This document shows positions 799-64,000 of a DNA stretch of 64,000 nucleotides, in pieces. The position numbers and the translations under genes were made by a program. Origin of the DNA: Eledone cirrhosa (Eukaryota); assembly GCA_964016885.1 (NCBI GenBank), contig CAXHJY010000651.1, positions 1 to 64,000 on the forward strand, in the 5' to 3' direction. Each line of letters begins with the position of its first letter. Position 1 is the first letter of the stretch. The notes beneath the pieces are model-generated. The model was not told the origin of the DNA. It saw only the letters and a list, made by a program, of their open reading frames with translations, and did no database searches.

Positions 799-1133
799 GA
801 AAATCCAAAGGCAAGGTAAAATTCCAATCATTTAATCACGACACATGTTTCAATAAGAGATAGATCGATTGTGAAGCCATGATCGATTATCGCCGATCTC
901 ATCAGGTGAAAATGAATTGTCTTCAAATTCTTGATATGAGGGAGAAAAAATAACGATTCTGTGAGAGAACATCGTTATTTTTTCTCCCTCATATCAAGAA
1001 TTTGTAGACAATTCATTTTCACCTGATGAGATCGGTGATAATCGATCATGGCTTCACAATCGATCTATCTCTTATTGAAACATGTGTCGTGATTAAATGA
1101 TTGGAATTTTACCTTGCCTTCGGATTTTCATTT
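795..1133. repeat. Fold-back inverted repeat (163 bp arms, 13 nt loop), PLE pLTR-like, adjacent to (TA)n
   Basis: 795-957 is the reverse complement of 971-1133 with 3 mismatches seen. Confidence 0.95.
1018..1092 (+). ncRNA. Minimal type I hammerhead ribozyme-like motif (mirror copy on - strand in left arm)
   Basis: tcac-CTGATGA-(long stem II region)-GAAA-C-atgt-GTC-gtga; stem I tcac/gtga; closure of stem II is imperfect. Confidence 0.6.
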
Positions 1134-4247: not shown

Positions 4248-4450
4248 ATGTAGAAGTTCTATTTAAATTGTTGGGATACAACAAGCAAATATTTTTATAA
4301 CTGATATAAAGCACTCAACAAATTATTGGAGTAAAAATACGATATATTAACAAATGGAAACTATATTTATAAAACCATATTTATTTCATTATACATATTT
4401 CAAGGACACCAAGCTAAATTATGGTGTGCTTTCATCAGATAAAATATAAT
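4248..4450 (-). mobile_element. PLE pLTR-like element with HHR motif (family A)
   Basis: Reverse complement of 4382-4447: ttttat-CTGATGA-aagcacacca...tggtgtcctt-GAAA-tatgt-ATA-atgaaa; flanks match 18232-18480 and 32865-32980. Confidence 0.7.
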
Positions 4451-9734: not shown

Positions 9735-10040
9735 AGTTGGCATTTGTACCAAGAAGTTTCCGCTCCGAAGCACAAGGAGATGGAAGGTGTTTTCGTGGAA
9801 GATCAGCAAGTGCTCACGCATGCCAGTCTCCTTTCTCCATACCACCGTTGTTGTCCAAGGGAAAGGCAAGAGCCGATACAGCTTGGCACCAGTCAAATCG
9901 CAAATCATTTCTTTAGTTGAGTGAACTAAAGCAACGTGAAATAAAGTCTTACTCAAGGACGCAGTGCACCGCCAGCTTCGGGAATCGAACTCACAGCCTC
10001 ATGATTATGAATCCAATGCTCTAACTACTAAGCTACGAAC
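9735..10040 (-). mobile_element. CORE-type SINE with a distinct 3' tail
   Basis: Reverse strand has tagcttagtagttagagc, gagttcgattccc, gtccttgagtaagactttatttcacgttgc; tail-like pieces recur at ~255-400 and ~50075-50180. Confidence 0.7.
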
Positions 10041-10919
10041 CTATAAATACATACACACTCACTCATACACAAGCACACACTCACGCACACCCACTCACAA
10101 AACAAACAAACATACACTCATATATATTCGACGGGCTTCTGTACAATTTCTGTCTACTAAACTTCATTCACAAAGCATAGGTCAATCCATTAAAAAAGAA
10201 TGGTTTGGCCCTTTTGAGGGTTTTCAATGTCAGCTATTTCCTTTAACTCAATTCTGTTGTTCTTGTTTTGTTGTTGTTTTTATCACGCACATACATACAC
10301 AGTCATATGTAGAGGTGGGAAGGAAAGAGAAAGAAGGGAAGGAATGAAAGAGAGAGACACAGAGAGAAATAGAGGGCTTGTGTGAGAGAGAGAAAGTAAG
10401 TGAGAGAGAGTGAGTGAGAAAGAGAGTGAGAGAGAGAAAGGGAGAAAGAGAGAGAAAGAGAGAAAGAGAGAGTGGGAGAGAGAGAGAGAGAGTGTGTGTG
10501 TGAGAGAGAATCATATACTGTAGTTTTTTTTAAAGCACACGCTAGGAGGTTGTGATCGCATCAAATTCTAATTGTAGCGAAGTTACTGTCAACACAGAGT
10601 TCCTTTGTCACGTTGTTGTCATTGTTGTTGTTATTGCCATTTTTTTTTTTCATTTGTGCTTTTGTTTTTGTTGTTGTTGTTGTTGTTTGAAGGGAGTTTA
10701 CTTGCTTCTTTACTTTTTTCTTTTTCCTTTTTATTATTTATTTTTATTTATTTATTTGTTTGTTTGTTTGTTTATTGTTCTCTGGTTGTTCTAATATTTA
10801 AAAGTGACTTGTGTGAAATGGAGATGGATGGATTACTGAAACGGAACACTGACTTTTCAACAACATTAAGAAGACTAACACTAATAAAACAACACAAACA
10901 ACACAAACACTGAGACACA

Positions 10920-18235: not shown

Positions 18236-18482
18236 ATGCAAAAGTTTTATTTAAAATTGTTGGGTTACAACAAGTAAATATTTTATAACCGATATAAAGC
18301 ACTCGACAAGTTTTGGAGTAGATATACGATATTATTACGTCAAAATTATTTATAAAACTGTTTATATATTGTATTTTATCTGAAGAAGGCATACCATATT
18401 TTTAATATGGTATCCCCGAAATATGTATAATGAAATAAATATGGTTTTATAAATATAGTTTCCATTTGTTTAATATCGTATA
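18232..18482. mobile_element. Family A pLTR-like pieces in opposite orientations, with HHR on + strand
   Basis: 18232-18335 matches 4250-4345 directly; 18372-18440 is tttat-CTGAAGA-agg.ataccatat...atatggtat.cc-GAAA-tatgt-ATA-atgaa. Confidence 0.7.
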
Positions 18483-19299: not shown

Positions 19300-19462
19300 A
19301 TTCAAAATATTAACAAAATAGATATTCTTGCGATCAAGTATATTTTATTATACAAATATTTCAGAGGTACTGAGTTAAGTTCAACAGTACGTCCTCATCA
19401 GATAGAATAAGATGATGCATGACATACCCTGACATAGTAGATGTTTAAGATTCAGTCATGGT
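19300..19462 (-). mobile_element. PLE pLTR-like element with HHR motif, related to 39914-40148
   Basis: Reverse strand ttctat-CTGATGA-gg.cgtactg...cagtacctct-GAAA-tatttgtataataaaa. Confidence 0.6.
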
Positions 19463-25175: not shown

Positions 25176-26149
25176 GCTGCACCAAAACTAACACTACCTC
25201 CATCACCACCACCAACACCACCAGTCCACTACAGCCAACACTACCTCCAATTCCGCTACCAACACCACCGCTGCACCAAAACCAACACTACCTCCATCAC
25301 CAGCACCAACACCACCACTCCACTACAGCCAACACTACCTCCAATTCCGCTACCAACACCACCGCTGCACAAAAACCAACACTACCTCCATCACCACCAC
25401 CAACACCACCACCACCACCAACACTACCAGCATTAGCCAATACTCCTCCACAACCACCACACTACCAAAACCGACAATACTAACACTAAAACTGCCAACG
25501 CTACAACCAAAACTACCACTATCACTACCACTATCACAACCACTATCACTACCACTATCACCACCACTACCAGCACAACCAACACTACCACCACCACTAA
25601 CAAGACAACCAACATTATCACTACACTACAACCCACACTACCACCACAACCAACACTACAACAAAAACAACACTACCACCACAACCAACACTACAACAAA
25701 AACAACACTACCACCACAACCAACACTACAACAAAAAACAACACTACCACAACAACCCACACAACCACCACAACCAACATTATCCCTACACTACAACCCA
25801 CACTACCACCACAACCAACACTACAACAAAAAACAACGCTACCACCACAAACAACACTACTACCACAACCAACACTACCACCACAACCAACACTACCACC
25901 ACAACCAACACTACTACTACAACCAACACTACCACCACAACCAACACTACCACTACAACCAACACTACCACCACAACCAACACTACCACCACAACCAACT
26001 CTACCACCACAACCAACTCTACTCCATCCCTGACTCCAACACCATCACCACAACTGACTCTACCACCACCAAGACTAACATCAAAACCACCACCACAATC
26101 GCCACTACCACCGACACACACACACACACCACCACTACCAACAATACTA

Positions 26150-29100
26150 CTACAACCACTACCATCACCAATACCACCACAACCGCCACTACCACCAACA
26201 CCCACACCACTACCATCACCAATATCCACCACAACCGCCACTACCACCAACACCCGCACCACTACCATCACCAATACCACCACAACCGCCACTACCACCA
26301 ACACCCACAACCACTACCATCACCAATACCACCACAACAACCACTACCACCAACACCCACACCACTACCATCACCAATACCACCACAACCGCCACTACCA
26401 CCAACACCCACAACCACTACCATCACCACTACCACCACAACCGCCACTACCACCAACACCCACAACCACTACCAGCACCAATACCACCACAAACGCCACT
26501 ACCACCAACACGCACAACCACTACCATCACCAATACCACCACAACCGCCACTACCACCAACACCCACACCACTACCATCACCAATACCACCACAACCGCC
26601 ACTACCACCAACACCCACACCACTACCAACACCAATACCACCACAACCGCCACTACCACCAACACGCACAACCACTACCATCACCAATACCAGCACAACC
26701 GCCACTACCACCAACACCCACACCACTACCATCACCAATACCACCACAACCGCCACTACCACCAACACCCACACCACTACCAACACCAATACCACCACAA
26801 CCGCCACTACCACCAACACGCACAACCACTACCATCACCAATACCACCACAACCGCCACTACCACCAACACCCACAACCACTACCATCACCAATACCACC
26901 ACAACCGCCACTACCACCAGCACCCACAACCACTACCATCACCAATACCACCACAACCGCCACTACCACCAACACCCACAACCACTACCATCACCAATAC
27001 CACCACAACTGCCACTACCACCAACACCCACAACCACTACCATCACCAATACCACCACAACCGCCACTACCACCAACACCCACAACCACTACCATCACCA
27101 ATACCACCACAACCGCCACTACCACCAACACCCACAACCACTACCATCACCAATACCACCACAACTGCCACTACCACCAACACCCACAACCACTACCATC
27201 ACCAATACCACCACAACCGCCACTACCACCAACACCCACACCACTACCAACACCAATACCACCACAACCGCCACTACCACCAACACGCACAACCACTACC
27301 ATCACCAATACCAGCACAACCGCCACTACCACCAACACCCACAACCACTACCAGCACCAATACCACCACAACCGCCACTACCACCAACACCCAGAACCAC
27401 TACCATCACCAATACCACCACAACCGCCACTACCACCAACACCCACAACCACTACCATCACCAATACCACCACAACAACCACTACCACCAACACCCACAC
27501 CACTACCATCACCAATACCACCACAACCGCCACTACCACCAACACCCACAACCACTACCATCACCAATACCACCACAACCGCCACTACCACCAACACCCA
27601 CAACCACTACCATCACCAATACCACCACAACCGCCACTACCACCAACACCCACACCACTACCATCACCAATACCACCACAACCGCCACTACCACCAACAC
27701 CCACAACCACTACCATCACCAATACCACCACAACCGCCACTACCACCAACACCCACAACCACTACCATCACCAATACCACCACAACCGCCACTACCACCA
27801 ACACCCACACCACTACCATCACCAATACCACCACAACCGCCACTACCACCAACACCCACAACCACTACCATCACCAATACCACCACAACCGCCACTACCA
27901 CCAACACCCACAACCACTACCATCACCAATACCACCACAACTGCCACTACCACCAACACCCACAACCACTACCATCACCAATACCACCACAACCGCCACT
28001 ACCACCAACACCCACAGCCACTACCATCACCAATACCACCACAACCGCCACTACCACCAACACCCACAACCACTACCATCACCAATACCACCACAACTGC
28101 CACTACCACCAACACGCACAACCACTACCATCACCAATACCACCACAACCGCCACTACCACCAACACCCACACCACTACCATCACCAATACCACCACAAC
28201 CGCCACTACCACCAACACCCACAACTACTACCATCACCAATACCACCACAACCGCCACTACCACCAACACCCACAACCACTACCATCACCAATACCACCA
28301 CAACCGCCACTACCACCAACACCCACAACCACTACCATCACCAATACCAGCACAACCGCCACTACCACCAACACCCACAACCACTACCAGCACCAATACC
28401 ACCACAACCGCCACTACCACCAACACCCAGAACCACTACCATCACCAATACCACCACAACCGCCACTACCACCAACACCCACAACCACTACCATCACCAA
28501 TACCACCACAACAACCACTACCACCAACACCCACACCACTACCATCACCAATACCACCACAACCGCCACTACCACCAACACCCACAACCACTACCATCAC
28601 CAATACCACCACAACCGCCACTACCACCAACACCCACACCACTACCATCACCAATACCACCACAACCGCCACTACCACCAACACCCACAACCACTACCAT
28701 CACCAATACCACCACAACCGCCACTACCACCAACACCCACAACTACTACCATCACCAATACCACCACAACCGCCACTACCACCAACACGCACAACCACTA
28801 CCATCACCAATACCACCACAACCGCCACTACCACCAGCACCCACAACCACTACCATCACCAATACCACCACAACCGCCACTACCACCAACACCCACAACC
28901 ACTACCATCACCAATACCACCACAACTGCCACTACCACCAACACCCACAACCACTACCATCACCACTACCCACCACAACCGCCACTACCACCAACACCCA
29001 CAACCACTACCATCACCAATACCACCACAACTGCCACTACCACCCAACACCCACAACCACTACCATCACCACTACCACCACAACCGCCACTACCACCAAC

Positions 29101-30842
29101 ACCCACAACCACTACCATCACCAATACCACCACAACTGCCACTACCACCAACACCCACAACCACTACCATCACCACTACCACCACAACCGCCACTACCAC
29201 CAACACCCACACCACTACCATCACCAATACCACCACAACCGCCTCTACCACCAACACCCACAACCACTACCATCACCACTACCACCACAACCGCCACTAC
29301 CACCAACACCCACACCACTACCATCACCATACCACCACAACCGCCACTACCACCAACACCCACAACCACTACCATCACCAATACCACCACAACCGCCACT
29401 ACCACAACACCCACAACCACTACCATCACCAATACCACCACAACCGCCACTACCACCAACACCCACAACCACTACCATCACCAATACCACCACAACCGCC
29501 ACTACCACCAACACCCACAACCACTACCATCACCAATACCACCACAACCGCCACTACCACCAACACCCACAACCACTACCATCACCAATACCACCACAAC
29601 TGCCACTACCACCAACACCCACAACCACTACCATCACCACTACCACCACGACCGCCACTAACCACCAACACCCACAACCACTACCATCACCAATACCACC
29701 ACAACTGCCACTACCACCAACACCCACAACCACTACCATCACCACTACCACCACAACCGCCACTACCACCAACACCCACAACCACTACCATCACCAATAC
29801 CACCACAACTGCCACTACCACCAACACCCACAACCACTACCATCACCACTACCACCACAACCGCCACTACCACCAACACCCACAACCACTACCATCACCA
29901 ATACCACCACAACCGCCACTACCACCAGCACCCACAACCACTACCATCACCACTACCACCACAACCGCCACTACCACCAACACCCACACCACTACCATCA
30001 CCAATACCACCACAACAACCACTACCACCAACACCCACACCACTACCATCACCAATACCACCACAACCGCCACTACCACCAACACGCACAACCACTACCA
30101 TCACCAATACCACCACAACCGCCACTACCACCAACACCCACAACCACTACCATCACCAATACCACCACAACCGCCACTACCACCAACACCCACAACCACT
30201 ACCATCACCACTACCACCACAACCGCCACTACCACCAACACCCACACCACTACCATCACCAATACCACCACAACCGCCACTACCACCAAACACCCACAAC
30301 CACTACCATCACCAATACCACCACAAACCGCCACTACCACCAACACCCACAACTACTACCATCACCAATACCACCACAACCGCCACTACCACCAACACGC
30401 ACAACCACTACCATCACCAATACCACCACAACCGCCACTACCACCAGCACCCACAACCACTACCATCACCAATACCACCACAACCGCCACTACCACCCAA
30501 CACCCACAACCACTACCATCACCAATACCACCACAACTGCCACTACCACCAACACCCACAACCACTACCATCACCACTACCACCACAACCGCCACTACCA
30601 CCAACACCCACAACCACTACCATCACCAATACCACCACAACTGCCACTACCACCAACACGCACAACCACTACCATCACCAATACCACCACAACCGCCACT
30701 ACCACCAACACGCACAACCACTTACCATCACCAATACCACCACAACCGCCACTACCACCAGCACCCACAACCACTACCATCACCACTACCACCACAACCG
30801 CCACTACCACCAACACCCACACCACTACCATCACCAATATCC
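26150..30842. repeat. ~4.7 kb minisatellite, 52/51 bp unit, ~90 copies
   Basis: accactaccatcaccaataccaccacaaccgccactaccaccaacacccaca with recurrent single-base variants. Confidence 0.97.
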
Positions 30843-32537: not shown

Positions 32538-32730
32538 ACGAAGGAAAAGTGGTAAGGAACCAGGTGGACCATAACGCACCAAAGTACTCAATACTTAGGG
32601 TAGTAGAGTGGGTAATAGGAACGAGTAGGACCCCGATGGCTGAGCTCAACCCGTTTCGACGGCTATTTCTGGACTGAATTAGCCGTCGAAACGGCTTGAG
32701 CTCAGCCGTCGGGGTCCTACTCGTTCCTAT
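32536..32730 (-). mobile_element. Hairpin-tail element copy 4
   Basis: Same tail and palindrome, within (TA)n. Confidence 0.9.
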
Positions 32731-32864
32731 ATATAAATATATATATATAAGTAGAATGGTATTTAATTTGTTTGAAGTCCGACAAACATAAATGATAGAC
32801 TATCCAGTGAATTTCCAACCGATAAGGTATGATTTTCATGGGTATGTCTCTATTTATAAAACAA

Positions 32865-32980
32865 ACTTTGTATTTTATCTGATGAAAGCGTACCAATGAT
32901 GTCTTGGTTACCCTTGAAATATATATAATAAAATAAATATGGTTTTATAAATATAGTTTCCATTTATTTAATATCATTGT
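32865..32980 (+). ncRNA. Family A HHR motif with pLTR-like tail
   Basis: ttttat-CTGATGA-aag...ctt-GAAA-tatat-ATA-ataaaa. Confidence 0.65.
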
Positions 32981-39913: not shown

Positions 39914-40140
39914 TATTAAAATATAAATATTAATAAAATAGATGTTCTTTTGATCAATTATATTTTATTATATATATTTCAGATGTACAACAGTACGTCC
40001 TCATCAGACAAAATATAATGATATATGACATACCCTGAGATGTTAAATGGTTGTCTGATGATGATGTACTGTTGTACATCAGAAATATGTATAATAAAAT
40101 GTAATTGATCAAAAGAACATCTATTTTATTAATATTTATA

Positions 40141-40148
<8 letters not shown>
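39914..40148. mobile_element. Inverted pair of HHR-bearing pLTR-like arms
   Basis: 39914-40011 inverted against 40051-40148; + strand ttgt-CTGATGA-tgatgtac-tgtt-gtacatca-GAAA-tatgt-ATA-ataa. Confidence 0.8.
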
Positions 40149-40199
<51 letters not shown>

Positions 40200-61540: not shown

Positions 61541-62588
61541 TCTATTATTAATCAACCAGTAAAACATTCGTCCTGCCAGGTAGCCAACCAGTTATTTAGC
61601 TAACAAGTCGGCCAGTCATCCAGACTCTTAGACAGCCATCCCTTCAACCTGTCCAGCATCCAGTCAGCCAGCCTACCAGCCAGCCTACCAGCCAGCCTAC
61701 CAGCCAGCCTACCAGTCAGCCTGCCAGCCAGTCAGCCAGCCTGGTATCCAATCAGCCAGCCTACCAAGGAGTCTGCCAGCCAGCCAGCCAGCCAGTCAGT
61801 CAACAATCTAGTAACCCACCCAATCAGCCAGAGAGTCGGGTCAGCCAGTCACGTAGCTATCAAGCCACCCAACTATCCAGTTATCCAGCCATCCACCTAG
61901 TCAGTTAGTTAGTTATCCAGCCAACATAACACTTTAAAACTCAACAGACCAGTCATCCGTTTCAGTAAGCCAGTGAACCACTCAACCAAAAATGAGTATT
62001 TGTGCGCCATCATGGCTCGATAAGCTCGAAAGGTTTTATTTTTCCGGTGTATCTCTCTAAAATTTGTTTCTTTTTAGTTTTAGTTTTATATTATTATATT
62101 TTTTTTCTGTGGGGGAGGGATGAGGCTTTATTTATTTGTTTATTTTCCTTTACTTATTTTATTCCTTTTGTTTTACGTTATTGTTTTTAACTTTTTTTTT
62201 TATTTTCATTTATATATTTTTTGAAGATGCAGTTGAGTGAACAAACAGGCAAAGATTTTAACGAAGCAGAAACAAGAAAATGTTTTATACATTCGAGGGT
62301 TACCGACCCACGTCTATCAAATCTCAACTATCAAATTTCAGCTGCCCCACCACCACCACCACCATCACCACCATCACCACCATCCTCTTCGCCTACTACT
62401 AATAAACTAATCATTTCTATCATTAGCATCAGCATCATCATTAACAACGAAAGCGAAAAAGCAATAAAACCTACAACACCCCCACAATAAGTAATAATAA
62501 TTGTTTCAATAATACCAACTCCACCGCCGCTAACGCTACAACTTTGTATTTGAATACAAGCCAACGTACACACATACATAATCATATA

Positions 62589-62706
62589 AGGCGCGTGGCT
62601 GAGTGCTTAGAGAATTGGATTCGCAATCGTGAGGTTGTGAGCTCGATTCCAGGACCGGGTGATACGTTATGTACTTGAGCAAGATATTTTATTTCACATT
62701 GCTCCT
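62589..62706 (+). mobile_element. CORE-type SINE head fused to a ~105 bp repeat also seen at ~21714-21818
   Basis: tggctgagtg, gagctcgattcc, tacttgagcaagatattttatttcacattgctcc then ttctacctggagtt..gtcgatcgactgtcgat. Confidence 0.7.
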
Positions 62707-62820
62707 TCTACCTGGAGTTTCCACCGATAGATAATATTAGCAATTGGAACGACCAACGGAAACATTTTTTCCTCGGTCCGATTTAACGAAAGTCGATCGA
62801 CTGTCGATTTACATATACTA

Positions 62821-62905
62821 AAAAAATCTATACACACTTTGATAACCTGTATAGGCAATATTTATTAGAATGCTGGTGAAGTGTGTATACATTTTTTAGG
62901 ACACC

Positions 62906-62946
<41 letters not shown>

Positions 62947-63037
62947 GTCCCAAAAGAATGTATACACACTTTGATTATCTGTATAGACAATATTTATTAG
63001 AATGATGTTGAAGTGTGTATATATTTTTACGGACACC

Positions 63038-63040
<3 letters not shown>
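62821..63040. mobile_element. Two tandem ~100 bp Tc1/mariner MITEs separated by (TA)n
   Basis: TIRs agggtgtcc.aaaa...tatacacactt / aagtgtgtata...ttttt..ggacaccctg with TA flanks; first copy lacks its left end. Confidence 0.8.
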
Positions 63041-63104
<64 letters not shown>

Positions 63105-63118
63105 CATAGGGTGGGGGC

Positions 63119-63166
63119 TAAGCTCTGAGGAATACCAACAGTATGAAACAGAGATCTGTCAGCTTA
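63119..63166 (+). ncRNA. Type I hammerhead ribozyme, copy 1
   Basis: taagct-CTGAGGA-atac-caaca-gtat-GAAA-cagagatctg-TC-agctta; three stems pair; GUC site at 63158-63160. Confidence 0.85.
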
Positions 63167-63239
63167 TCTCCCTTTGTTTGTTGAAAAAACAAGTAAGTGA
63201 CATAGTCACTACTTTAAAAATACATAGGGGGGGGGGGGC

Positions 63240-63287
63240 TAAGCTCTGAGGAATACCAACAGTATGAAACAGAGATCTGTCAGCTTA
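63240..63287 (+). ncRNA. Type I hammerhead ribozyme, copy 2 (121 bp downstream, identical)
   Basis: Identical sequence within a 121 bp direct repeat. Confidence 0.85.
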
Positions 63288-63410
63288 TCTCCCTTTGTTT
63301 GTTGAAAAAACAAGTAAGTGACATAGTCACTACTTTAAAACAATAGCGTAAGGTCATCAAAATGCTTTTAATTAAACATACAGTGTATTACCAAATACAC
63401 TATATATACA

Positions 63411-63447
<37 letters not shown>

Positions 63448-63811
63448 TTAAGGGTACTATTTATGGTTATGTATGCAGTAAAACCTTTAATGTTAATGGT
63501 AATATATTATATATACACAAACCCTAAATAATGAGAGATAGTCATTAATTACTATCCTATTACCAGTAAGATAAATAGCTCAATGTAATAACATCAGTTG
63601 TTTTACAGAGCAGTTATATAGAGATTACAGTAATCAAAGTTCAGTTTAAGTCATTTATTTGCTTACAATTGTTTCCTCTTCCTCCAAACCGAGGTTTGGA
63701 TTCTTCGGAGCAACTATTTATAACATACTTGACCTCCTTTTCAACCCAAGAGACACATAAAACATATGCGCATATTGATCAACAGTGGGGTTGATGAATG
63801 TCACCCCACTG

Positions 63812-63870: not shown

Positions 63871-64000
63871 AAATGGTCTAAGGGGTTTAGTTATGTTCCT
63901 TTACAGTCCCAGTTCAGACATCGGTTTATATATATATATATATAAACCGATGTCTGAACTGGGACTGTAAAGGAACATAACTAAACCCCTTAGACTATTT
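63871..64000. repeat. Near-perfect palindrome centred on (TA)8, running off the window end
   Basis: 63871-63927 is the reverse complement of 63944-64000 with one mismatch. Confidence 0.95.

Follow-up and report, generated by a model that had tools for sequence, protein, structure and literature searches.

Two type I hammerhead motifs in a partial tandem duplication of a dispersed, (TA)n-flanked repeat in Eledone cirrhosa

The tandem and its hammerhead motifs

The window analyzed here, a stretch of 64,000 nucleotides (nt) of E. cirrhosa DNA, contains close to its end a direct repeat enclosed by two (TA)n runs (Table 1). The repeat had been described as one of 121 bp, and a period of 121 is indeed reported by TRF (1.9 copies, 99% match), though the first unit measures only 118 bp. 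Both units start at the same truncated point, 107 bp are identical between them (63113-63219 vs. 63234-63340) and their sole differences lie in a run of G residues, which differs in length and by one substitution, a T inside the run of unit 1. No further copy of the unit exists in the 64-kb window. The unit has a GC content of 40% and is overlapped only by short repeat-derived frames; directly upstream lie a MITE and the (TA)n run, and no frame of a Penelope-like element (PLE). A bacterial sigma-70 scan of the locus was set aside as irrelevant to animal DNA, apart from displaying a hairpin.

Table 1. Coordinates of the tandem locus and of the related AU-rich hammerhead motifs in the window.
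Feature	Positions	Strand	Basis or remark
(TA)n run, left side	63041..63103	.	likely insertion target
Unit 1, 118 bp, extra copy	63102..63219	+	lacks the last 75 bp of the element
Putative remnant of the 5' arm of a longer helix I	63104..63118	+	opposite-strand joints 63238/63240-63289 and loose ends in X4 and X5
Type I hammerhead 1, predicted cut after 63160	63119..63166	+	core pattern and pairing check
Cut-to-cut RNA, predicted, 121 nt, 40% GC	63161..63281	+	
6-bp hairpin, unit 1	63196..63210	+	
Unit 2, 121 bp	63220..63340	+	with a run of 12 G
Type I hammerhead 2, predicted cut after 63281	63240..63287	+	core pattern and pairing check
6-bp hairpin, unit 2	63317..63331	+	listed family variants 63321-63325 in or next to the loop
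3' part of the same dispersed element, single here	63341..63415	+	depth table; deepest-covered part of the family
7-bp hairpin close to the 3' end of the element	63383..63400	+	fold
(TA)n run, right side	63415..63444	.	
AU-rich PLE-type type I motif	4380-4450	-	related to the five below
AU-rich PLE-type type I motif	18368-18439	+	
AU-rich PLE-type type I motif	19339-19413	-	
AU-rich PLE-type type I motif	32867-32937	+	
AU-rich PLE-type type I motif	39959-40019	-	
AU-rich PLE-type type I motif	40043-40103	+	

As had been proposed, each unit carries a complete type I hammerhead ribozyme (HHR) motif. The core pattern matches at 63125-63160 and 63246-63281, i.e., twice against 0.04 matches expected, and none of 100 shuffles reaches two, the two matches being one duplicated sequence rather than independent hits. 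All 12 invariant core positions (CUGANGA, GAAA, and the NUH triplet) are present in both motifs, each of which combines a helix I of 6 bp, a helix II of 4 bp with a 5-nt loop, the triplet GUC, and a helix III that pairs by Watson-Crick rules, either as 4 bp with a 4-nt loop or as 5 bp around GA. The cut sites predicted from these structures, 121 nt apart, agree with those of the original prediction. The term “minimal,” which had been applied to the motifs, is not right by the definitions given in the accessible text of PMC4209133, as they are canonical-sized with a longer helix III. According to this source, canonical metazoan HHRs have 6 bp in helix I, 4 bp in helix II, and a helix III that is short and palindromic, whereas in the minimal HHRs of PLEs helix III is lost, helix II is lengthened, and a base is added at 9/10.1. 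The window motifs share with the latter the type I core, a palindromic helix III that allows a dimer, and the occurrence of mostly dispersed single copies, but differ in their helices of 6, 4, and 4-5 bp, in having no extra base at 9/10.1, and in an A-U pair at 10.1-11.1. In place of this A-U pair, found in both window copies, a G10.1-C11.1 pair is highly conserved in HHRs (PMC4209133, as far as accessible); G and C do occur at these positions in the wider family of the element, and in crickets the pair is reported to vary with compensation (PMC2837043, accessible part).

Folding predictions place the active structure of the isolated motif 2.1 kcal/mol behind a misfold with five pairs across the core, and in most contexts 2-4 kcal/mol above the ensemble. 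The active fold is predicted to make up at most 2% of the ensemble for the first motif and 0.2-5% for the second once the first has been cut, and the double-hammerhead fold of the uncut dimer lies 1.4 kcal/mol above the MFE (0.14% of the ensemble). The A-U pair and the competing misfold lower the expected activity of the motifs. Since such energies omit tertiary contacts, e.g., between loop 1 and loop 2, self-cleavage of either motif stays plausible. The Rfam hammerhead models, proposed earlier as a way to check the motifs, gave no match at gathering score nor among 124 matches up to E=10; this weighs little, because at gathering score Rfam also missed the other nine hammerhead-like motifs of the window.

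A dispersed family and the origin of the duplication

Five public sequencing runs with three species labels contain part of 63102-63415, with a best share of 0.31-0.38 of 16 words, and four of the 10 listed runs, which probably do not derive from the source animal, were aligned to 63220-63415 at a likeness of at least 80%. At this threshold, 2350 contigs of run X1, 3063 RAD reads of X8, 17 contigs of X4, and seven of X5 align, mostly 90-95% alike. Under three species labels, the sequence occurs as a scattered repeat with many heterogeneous copies. Figures from the runs refer to the matches listed, next to which a further 203 loose ends, 11 variant rows, and 2369 pieces exist. The exact pattern of the HHR motif does not occur in metagenome or viral contigs, and that of the tail does not occur in metagenome, viral, or prokaryote contigs, collections in which animal repeats are not expected.

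Beyond the unit, the family continues for 75 bp as far as a (TA)n run, and it also reaches upstream of the unit. Loose ends listed behind 63340/63341 (26 contigs in X1, 380 reads in X8) continue into the single-copy tail. The summed depth in X1 rises from 4.9 at 63220-26, where it stems from one contig, to about 40,000 at the cut site, 284,000 at 63332-38, and 531,000 at 63367-73; summed depth is not copy number, and its gradient mixes truncation, diverged subfamilies, and edge effects. In X4, X5, and X8 the unit start at 63220-26 has a depth of 0, X8 being a reduced-representation RAD-seq run whose 150-nt reads mostly stop at 63373 and barely reach this point. The ends of X8 reads at 63370/63373 and their starts at 63377 were considered as biology and rejected, as they are taken, from the sequence, to be restriction sites of the RAD library. 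Some loose ends before 63307 still contain a cut site and represent diverged subfamilies. Upstream, other family copies have an arm that is complementary to 63289-63310, as indicated by opposite-strand joints of X1 and X8 and, by eye, by loose ends of X4 and X5, so that helix I of the family appears to be much longer and both window copies to be cut inside it.

The variation among family copies bears on the function of the motif. Seven variants are listed within 63240-63287, all of them outside the 12 invariant core positions (P 0.11). Five are compatible with the structure (N7; A10.1 to G; U11.1 to C, unphased with respect to 10.1; C15.2 to U; and 63275, which turns helix III into a perfect palindrome), while the other two break a pair unless the partner changes too. 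In one X4 contig, a helix II pair has changed from U-A to C-G, with both changes phased. As the listed variants spare the core and mostly fit the structure, the family may represent a real, constrained ribozyme of which the window copy would be a somewhat drifted member. An AG insertion gained in helix III was also considered and dropped, variant 63275 already yielding the perfect palindrome. In the hairpin near the 3' end, the majority letters of the family at 63390 and 63392 (unphased) convert the loop into a GNRA tetraloop.

We propose that the motifs belong to this scattered family, which is likely the pseudo-LTR, i.e., the 3' end, of a Penelope-like retroelement that targets (TA)n, or a non-coding sequence derived from such an element. 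In a single 5'-shortened copy, about 120 of the roughly 200 bases were likely duplicated in place once it had inserted. We assign this reading a probability of about 0.6. A 5'-truncated PLE-type end would have entered the (TA)n tract by target-primed reverse transcription, followed later by partial duplication in place through slippage or unequal repair. A read-through transcript of the + strand, if formed, could be cut at both sites, either by each motif singly or by a double hammerhead with swapped helices III, and the freed 121-nt RNA, bearing 5'-OH and cyclic-phosphate ends, might be closed by an RtcB-type host ligase. Ligation of such ends by RtcB-type enzymes has been shown for the retrozymes of mussel and axolotl. 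The 121-nt RNA would then be a by-product of the locus and not the transposition unit of the family.

A duplication after insertion is favored because the single-copy tail has drifted from the family, while the units show no difference outside the G-run and share both their start and a minority letter. In the tail, A at 63356 is nearly private (59 of 340,339 depth units) and A at 63390 is found in 6%; the letter common to both units is a C at 63190/63311, where 93% of the X1 depth has the family G. As a dating test this is weak (P about 0.07 from the two clearest sites). The competing account, in which the partial tandem arose during insertion through a reverse transcriptase that jumped back and copied the 3' region twice, agrees with the absence of the last 75 bp from unit 1 and with the partial tandems and one-ended tails typical of PLEs (accessible text of PMC8557442). 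It is nevertheless scarcely probable, given that both units share a truncated, apparently locus-specific start (depth 4.9) and that, on the same weak test, 107 bp stayed without difference while the tail drifted.

The junction of the tandem (63340 to 63220) is absent from the five joints listed for four runs, a result that comes without a positive control, as the junction of this very locus is unlisted too; the samples may lack the duplication, and the G-run may break contigs. The same absence could mean that the duplicate is an assembly error at the G-run between the two (TA)n tracts and that the animal has one unit. The copies are in fact identical except in the G homopolymer, and the adjacent MITE-like pair, only 92% alike, would be older. 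We regard an assembly error as very unlikely, since the difference in the G-run includes a substitution and not length alone, and since absence from runs that are probably not from the source animal proves nothing.

Relation to Penelope-like elements and retrozymes

In PLEs, 5' truncation, partial tandems, inverted copies, one-ended tails, and (TA)n targets are described; insertion into (TA)n is known for the Hydra and Naiad groups, and Hydra PLEs carry canonical HHRs (PMC8557442, accessible part). An HHR near the 3' end, 5' truncation, a (TA)n target, and inverted copies are likewise found here. The opposite-strand joints and a 38-bp go-back at the 3' end of one X1 contig would be consistent with the inverted copies and tails that PLE insertions show. 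A close match is with the pseudo-LTRs of EN+ PLEs, for example of the Hydra clade (Craig et al., 2021, PMC8557442), which, in the portions of that paper available, share the canonical HHR near the 3' end, the (TA)n target, 5' truncation, and inverted copies, and whose one-ended tail may have a counterpart here. Unlike in these elements, no reverse transcriptase (RT) or endonuclease frame was seen here, and the extension past the unit measures 75 bp compared with a usual PLE tail of 30-40 bp. A Pfam search of 25 of the 130 window ORFs of at least 100 aa, plus four short frames, gave no relevant hit for RT or GIY-YIG domains, the 25 ORFs yielding only a low-complexity PT repeat. As no RT or endonuclease frame is linked to the family, its putative assignment to PLEs is based on layout. 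A short frame upstream of the motif at 4438, which by eye we took to resemble an endonuclease end, was dropped, there being no Pfam or homolog support for it.

The dimensions of canonical HHRs are tied to retrozymes more than to PLEs (accessible text of PMC7229834 and PMC7761336) and, by analogy, would count against a PLE identity of the family. The metazoan non-LTR retrozymes described by Cervera and de la Peña (2020, PMC7229834, accessible part) resemble the locus in their non-coding tandem units of less than 50% GC, their canonical-sized type I HHR, and a well-folded predicted circle. Here, by comparison, only a dimer exists, with units of 118/121 bp vs. 150-450 bp; the unit lies within a longer element, and it is known from DNA alone. 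A further comparison is offered by retrozyme dimers derived from PLE pseudo-LTRs, for which Li, Clavereau and Pollet (2026, bioRxiv 10.64898/2026.07.22.740005) report genomic units of 51-972 bp and propose that local tandems arise from PLE ends. The locus fits their dimer rule, size range, and local-tandem-birth model. By their operational rule, i.e., two tandem units with a complete HHR and an MFE below -5 kcal/mol, it would count as a retrozyme dimer (MFE here -7.9 kcal/mol, though that fold is the misfold). Their link to PLEs consists of homology to Repbase pseudo-LTRs in Xenopus, while here it is one of layout, and the accessible text names no mollusc among the groups of its 35 genomes. 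The 121 nt of the predicted RNA, called short for a retrozyme at first, thus lie inside the reported genomic range and below the 170-400 nt of animal retrozyme circles shown by experiment (PMC7229834, as far as accessible).

The original prediction took the 121-bp unit for a retrozyme monomer that might represent a circRNA-forming family. The link to Penelope-like and retrozyme biology has held, but 121 nt as the monomer of the family has not, the family being 75 bp longer, the unit start nearly uncovered, and the junction unlisted. In the public runs, in a test lacking a positive control, the unit appears as a single-locus duplication with no other tandem copies, which is the second half of the outcome that the prediction itself had named as contrary to it, beside a lack of cleavage. 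That the unit forms arrays elsewhere and is expressed as a 121-nt circle would agree with the two intact motifs 121 nt apart, the double-hammerhead fold only slightly above the MFE of the dimer, the operational rule above, and the predicted fold of the circular monomer, which is better than that of shuffles (z -3.2; two of 500 equally good). The composition, non-coding and below 50% GC, is also that of a retrozyme. The window holds no other copy, however, the active folds are sparsely populated, and eight of nine predicted Xenopus dimers did not cleave, i.e., only one did (Li et al., 2026, accessible text). Nor was a Pol III A or B box found in the element, and four T-runs separate the upstream tRNA-like SINE from the HHR; promoters are thought to be absent from retrozymes generally (PMC7761336, accessible part). 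We consider this account improbable and a 121-nt circRNA family unlikely.

The parent family might instead be a non-autonomous retrozyme whose monomer measures about 200 nt and closes from the tail onto the helix I arm, the locus then being a nearly full monomer with a partial local duplication. Both the canonical-sized HHR with its stable helix III, as found in invertebrate retrozymes (PMC7761336, in the text available), and the dispersed monomers common in retrozyme families (Li et al., 2026, in part) are compatible with it. In one X4 loose end, the helix I arm is closely preceded by a 9-letter word identical to 63409-63417, where the tail ends (chance about 0.005 in a single post-hoc comparison); if this 9-mer is real, the family would close from tail to arm at about 200 nt and be a true retrozyme whose monomer differs from the one first proposed. 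The letters before the word differ from the tail, though, and it occurs in one contig only; no tail-to-HHR joint is among those listed in the four runs, and depth is strongly weighted to the 3' side, which leaves this version unlikely.

In our preferred reading, that of a duplicated Penelope-like end, the locus is an ordinary product of a known system, namely hammerhead-bearing Penelope-like ends, which are common in animals. Its value is modest: it cleanly illustrates how, according to the proposal of Li et al., retrozymes would be born, and it points to a hammerhead family present in several species. A bolder version is doubtful. It would see a retrozyme caught at birth, in which the fresh duplication of a Penelope-like end yields two working hammerheads and a 121-nt circle below the known experimental sizes, in a genome that, if the window is typical, is far denser in hammerheads than the counts published for coral, frog, axolotl, and squid (from sources accessible in part). 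Should the dimer cut and circularize, it would set a new lower size for natural animal retrozyme circles, and the step from PLE to retrozyme would become testable at one locus.

In the literature, we found no report of cephalopod retrozymes and no description of this multi-species hammerhead family; the supplements of PMC7229834 and of Li et al. could list related elements. For the giant squid, 235 loci of the Rfam hammerhead-1 model are given (accessible text of PMC6962438). Octopus vulgaris has 31 recently active Penelope-like families, in a paper whose main text, as far as accessible, makes no mention of hammerheads or ribozymes (PMC13282606).

Hammerhead-like motifs and other repeats in the window

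A descriptor scan of the window gave six motifs, compared with none in 40 shuffles, and a second descriptor together with BLAST and a covariance model brought the total to 11 hammerhead-like motifs, the tandem pair included. Three of the 11 are weaker, two with E about 0.035 and one with a core change. This density, about 11 motifs of about four families per 64 kb or one per 6 kb in one window, is far above published genome-wide counts (sources accessible in part) if the window is typical. For all 11, a (TA)4+ run follows within 240 nt downstream, compared with a background median of 618, and two motif pairs sit in inverted foldbacks beside (TA)n. The six related AU-rich motifs (Table 1) show changes on both sides, i.e., compensatory ones, in six of eight helix II pairs, and a model built from them (R1) does not detect the tandem HHRs at E up to 1.

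The first of the foldbacks (39934-40149, 216 bp) lies between (TA)n runs and has an inverted hammerhead pair inside, and a similar inverted arrangement with one hammerhead occupies 18242-18481. The second, at about 796-1130 beside (TA)n, contains the inverted hammerhead-like pair 832-917 (-) and 1011-1096 (+), which has a long helix II region and weak model scores (E about 0.035). A hammerhead-like motif of another family is found 240 bp from the tandem (63654-63720, - strand), with strong helices (z -4.1) and a U4-to-C change in the core.

Several other repeats surround the locus. The two MITE-like copies upstream of the tandem (62820-62900 and 62942-63041; 92% alike, period 132, about 100 bp) have terminal inverted repeats flanked by TA and are presumably of the Tc1/mariner type. 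A loose end in X8 shows another truncated family copy adjoining the same MITE-like terminal word. At 63871-64000, a near-perfect 65-bp inverted repeat centered on (TA)n reaches the end of the window. tRNA-like SINE heads were found at 9973-10042 (-), the single Rfam hit at gathering score (tRNA, 32 bits), and at about 62585-62700 (+), with a B-box-like word at 62641; the 124 weak Rfam matches are mostly to miRNA models on TA-centered hairpins. A repeat of about 150 bp with internal inverted symmetry occupies 32600-32750 and at least seven other places in the window, and a 52-bp tandem array with 91 copies and 95% matches extends over 26123-30839, containing open frames of 1500-1700 codons.
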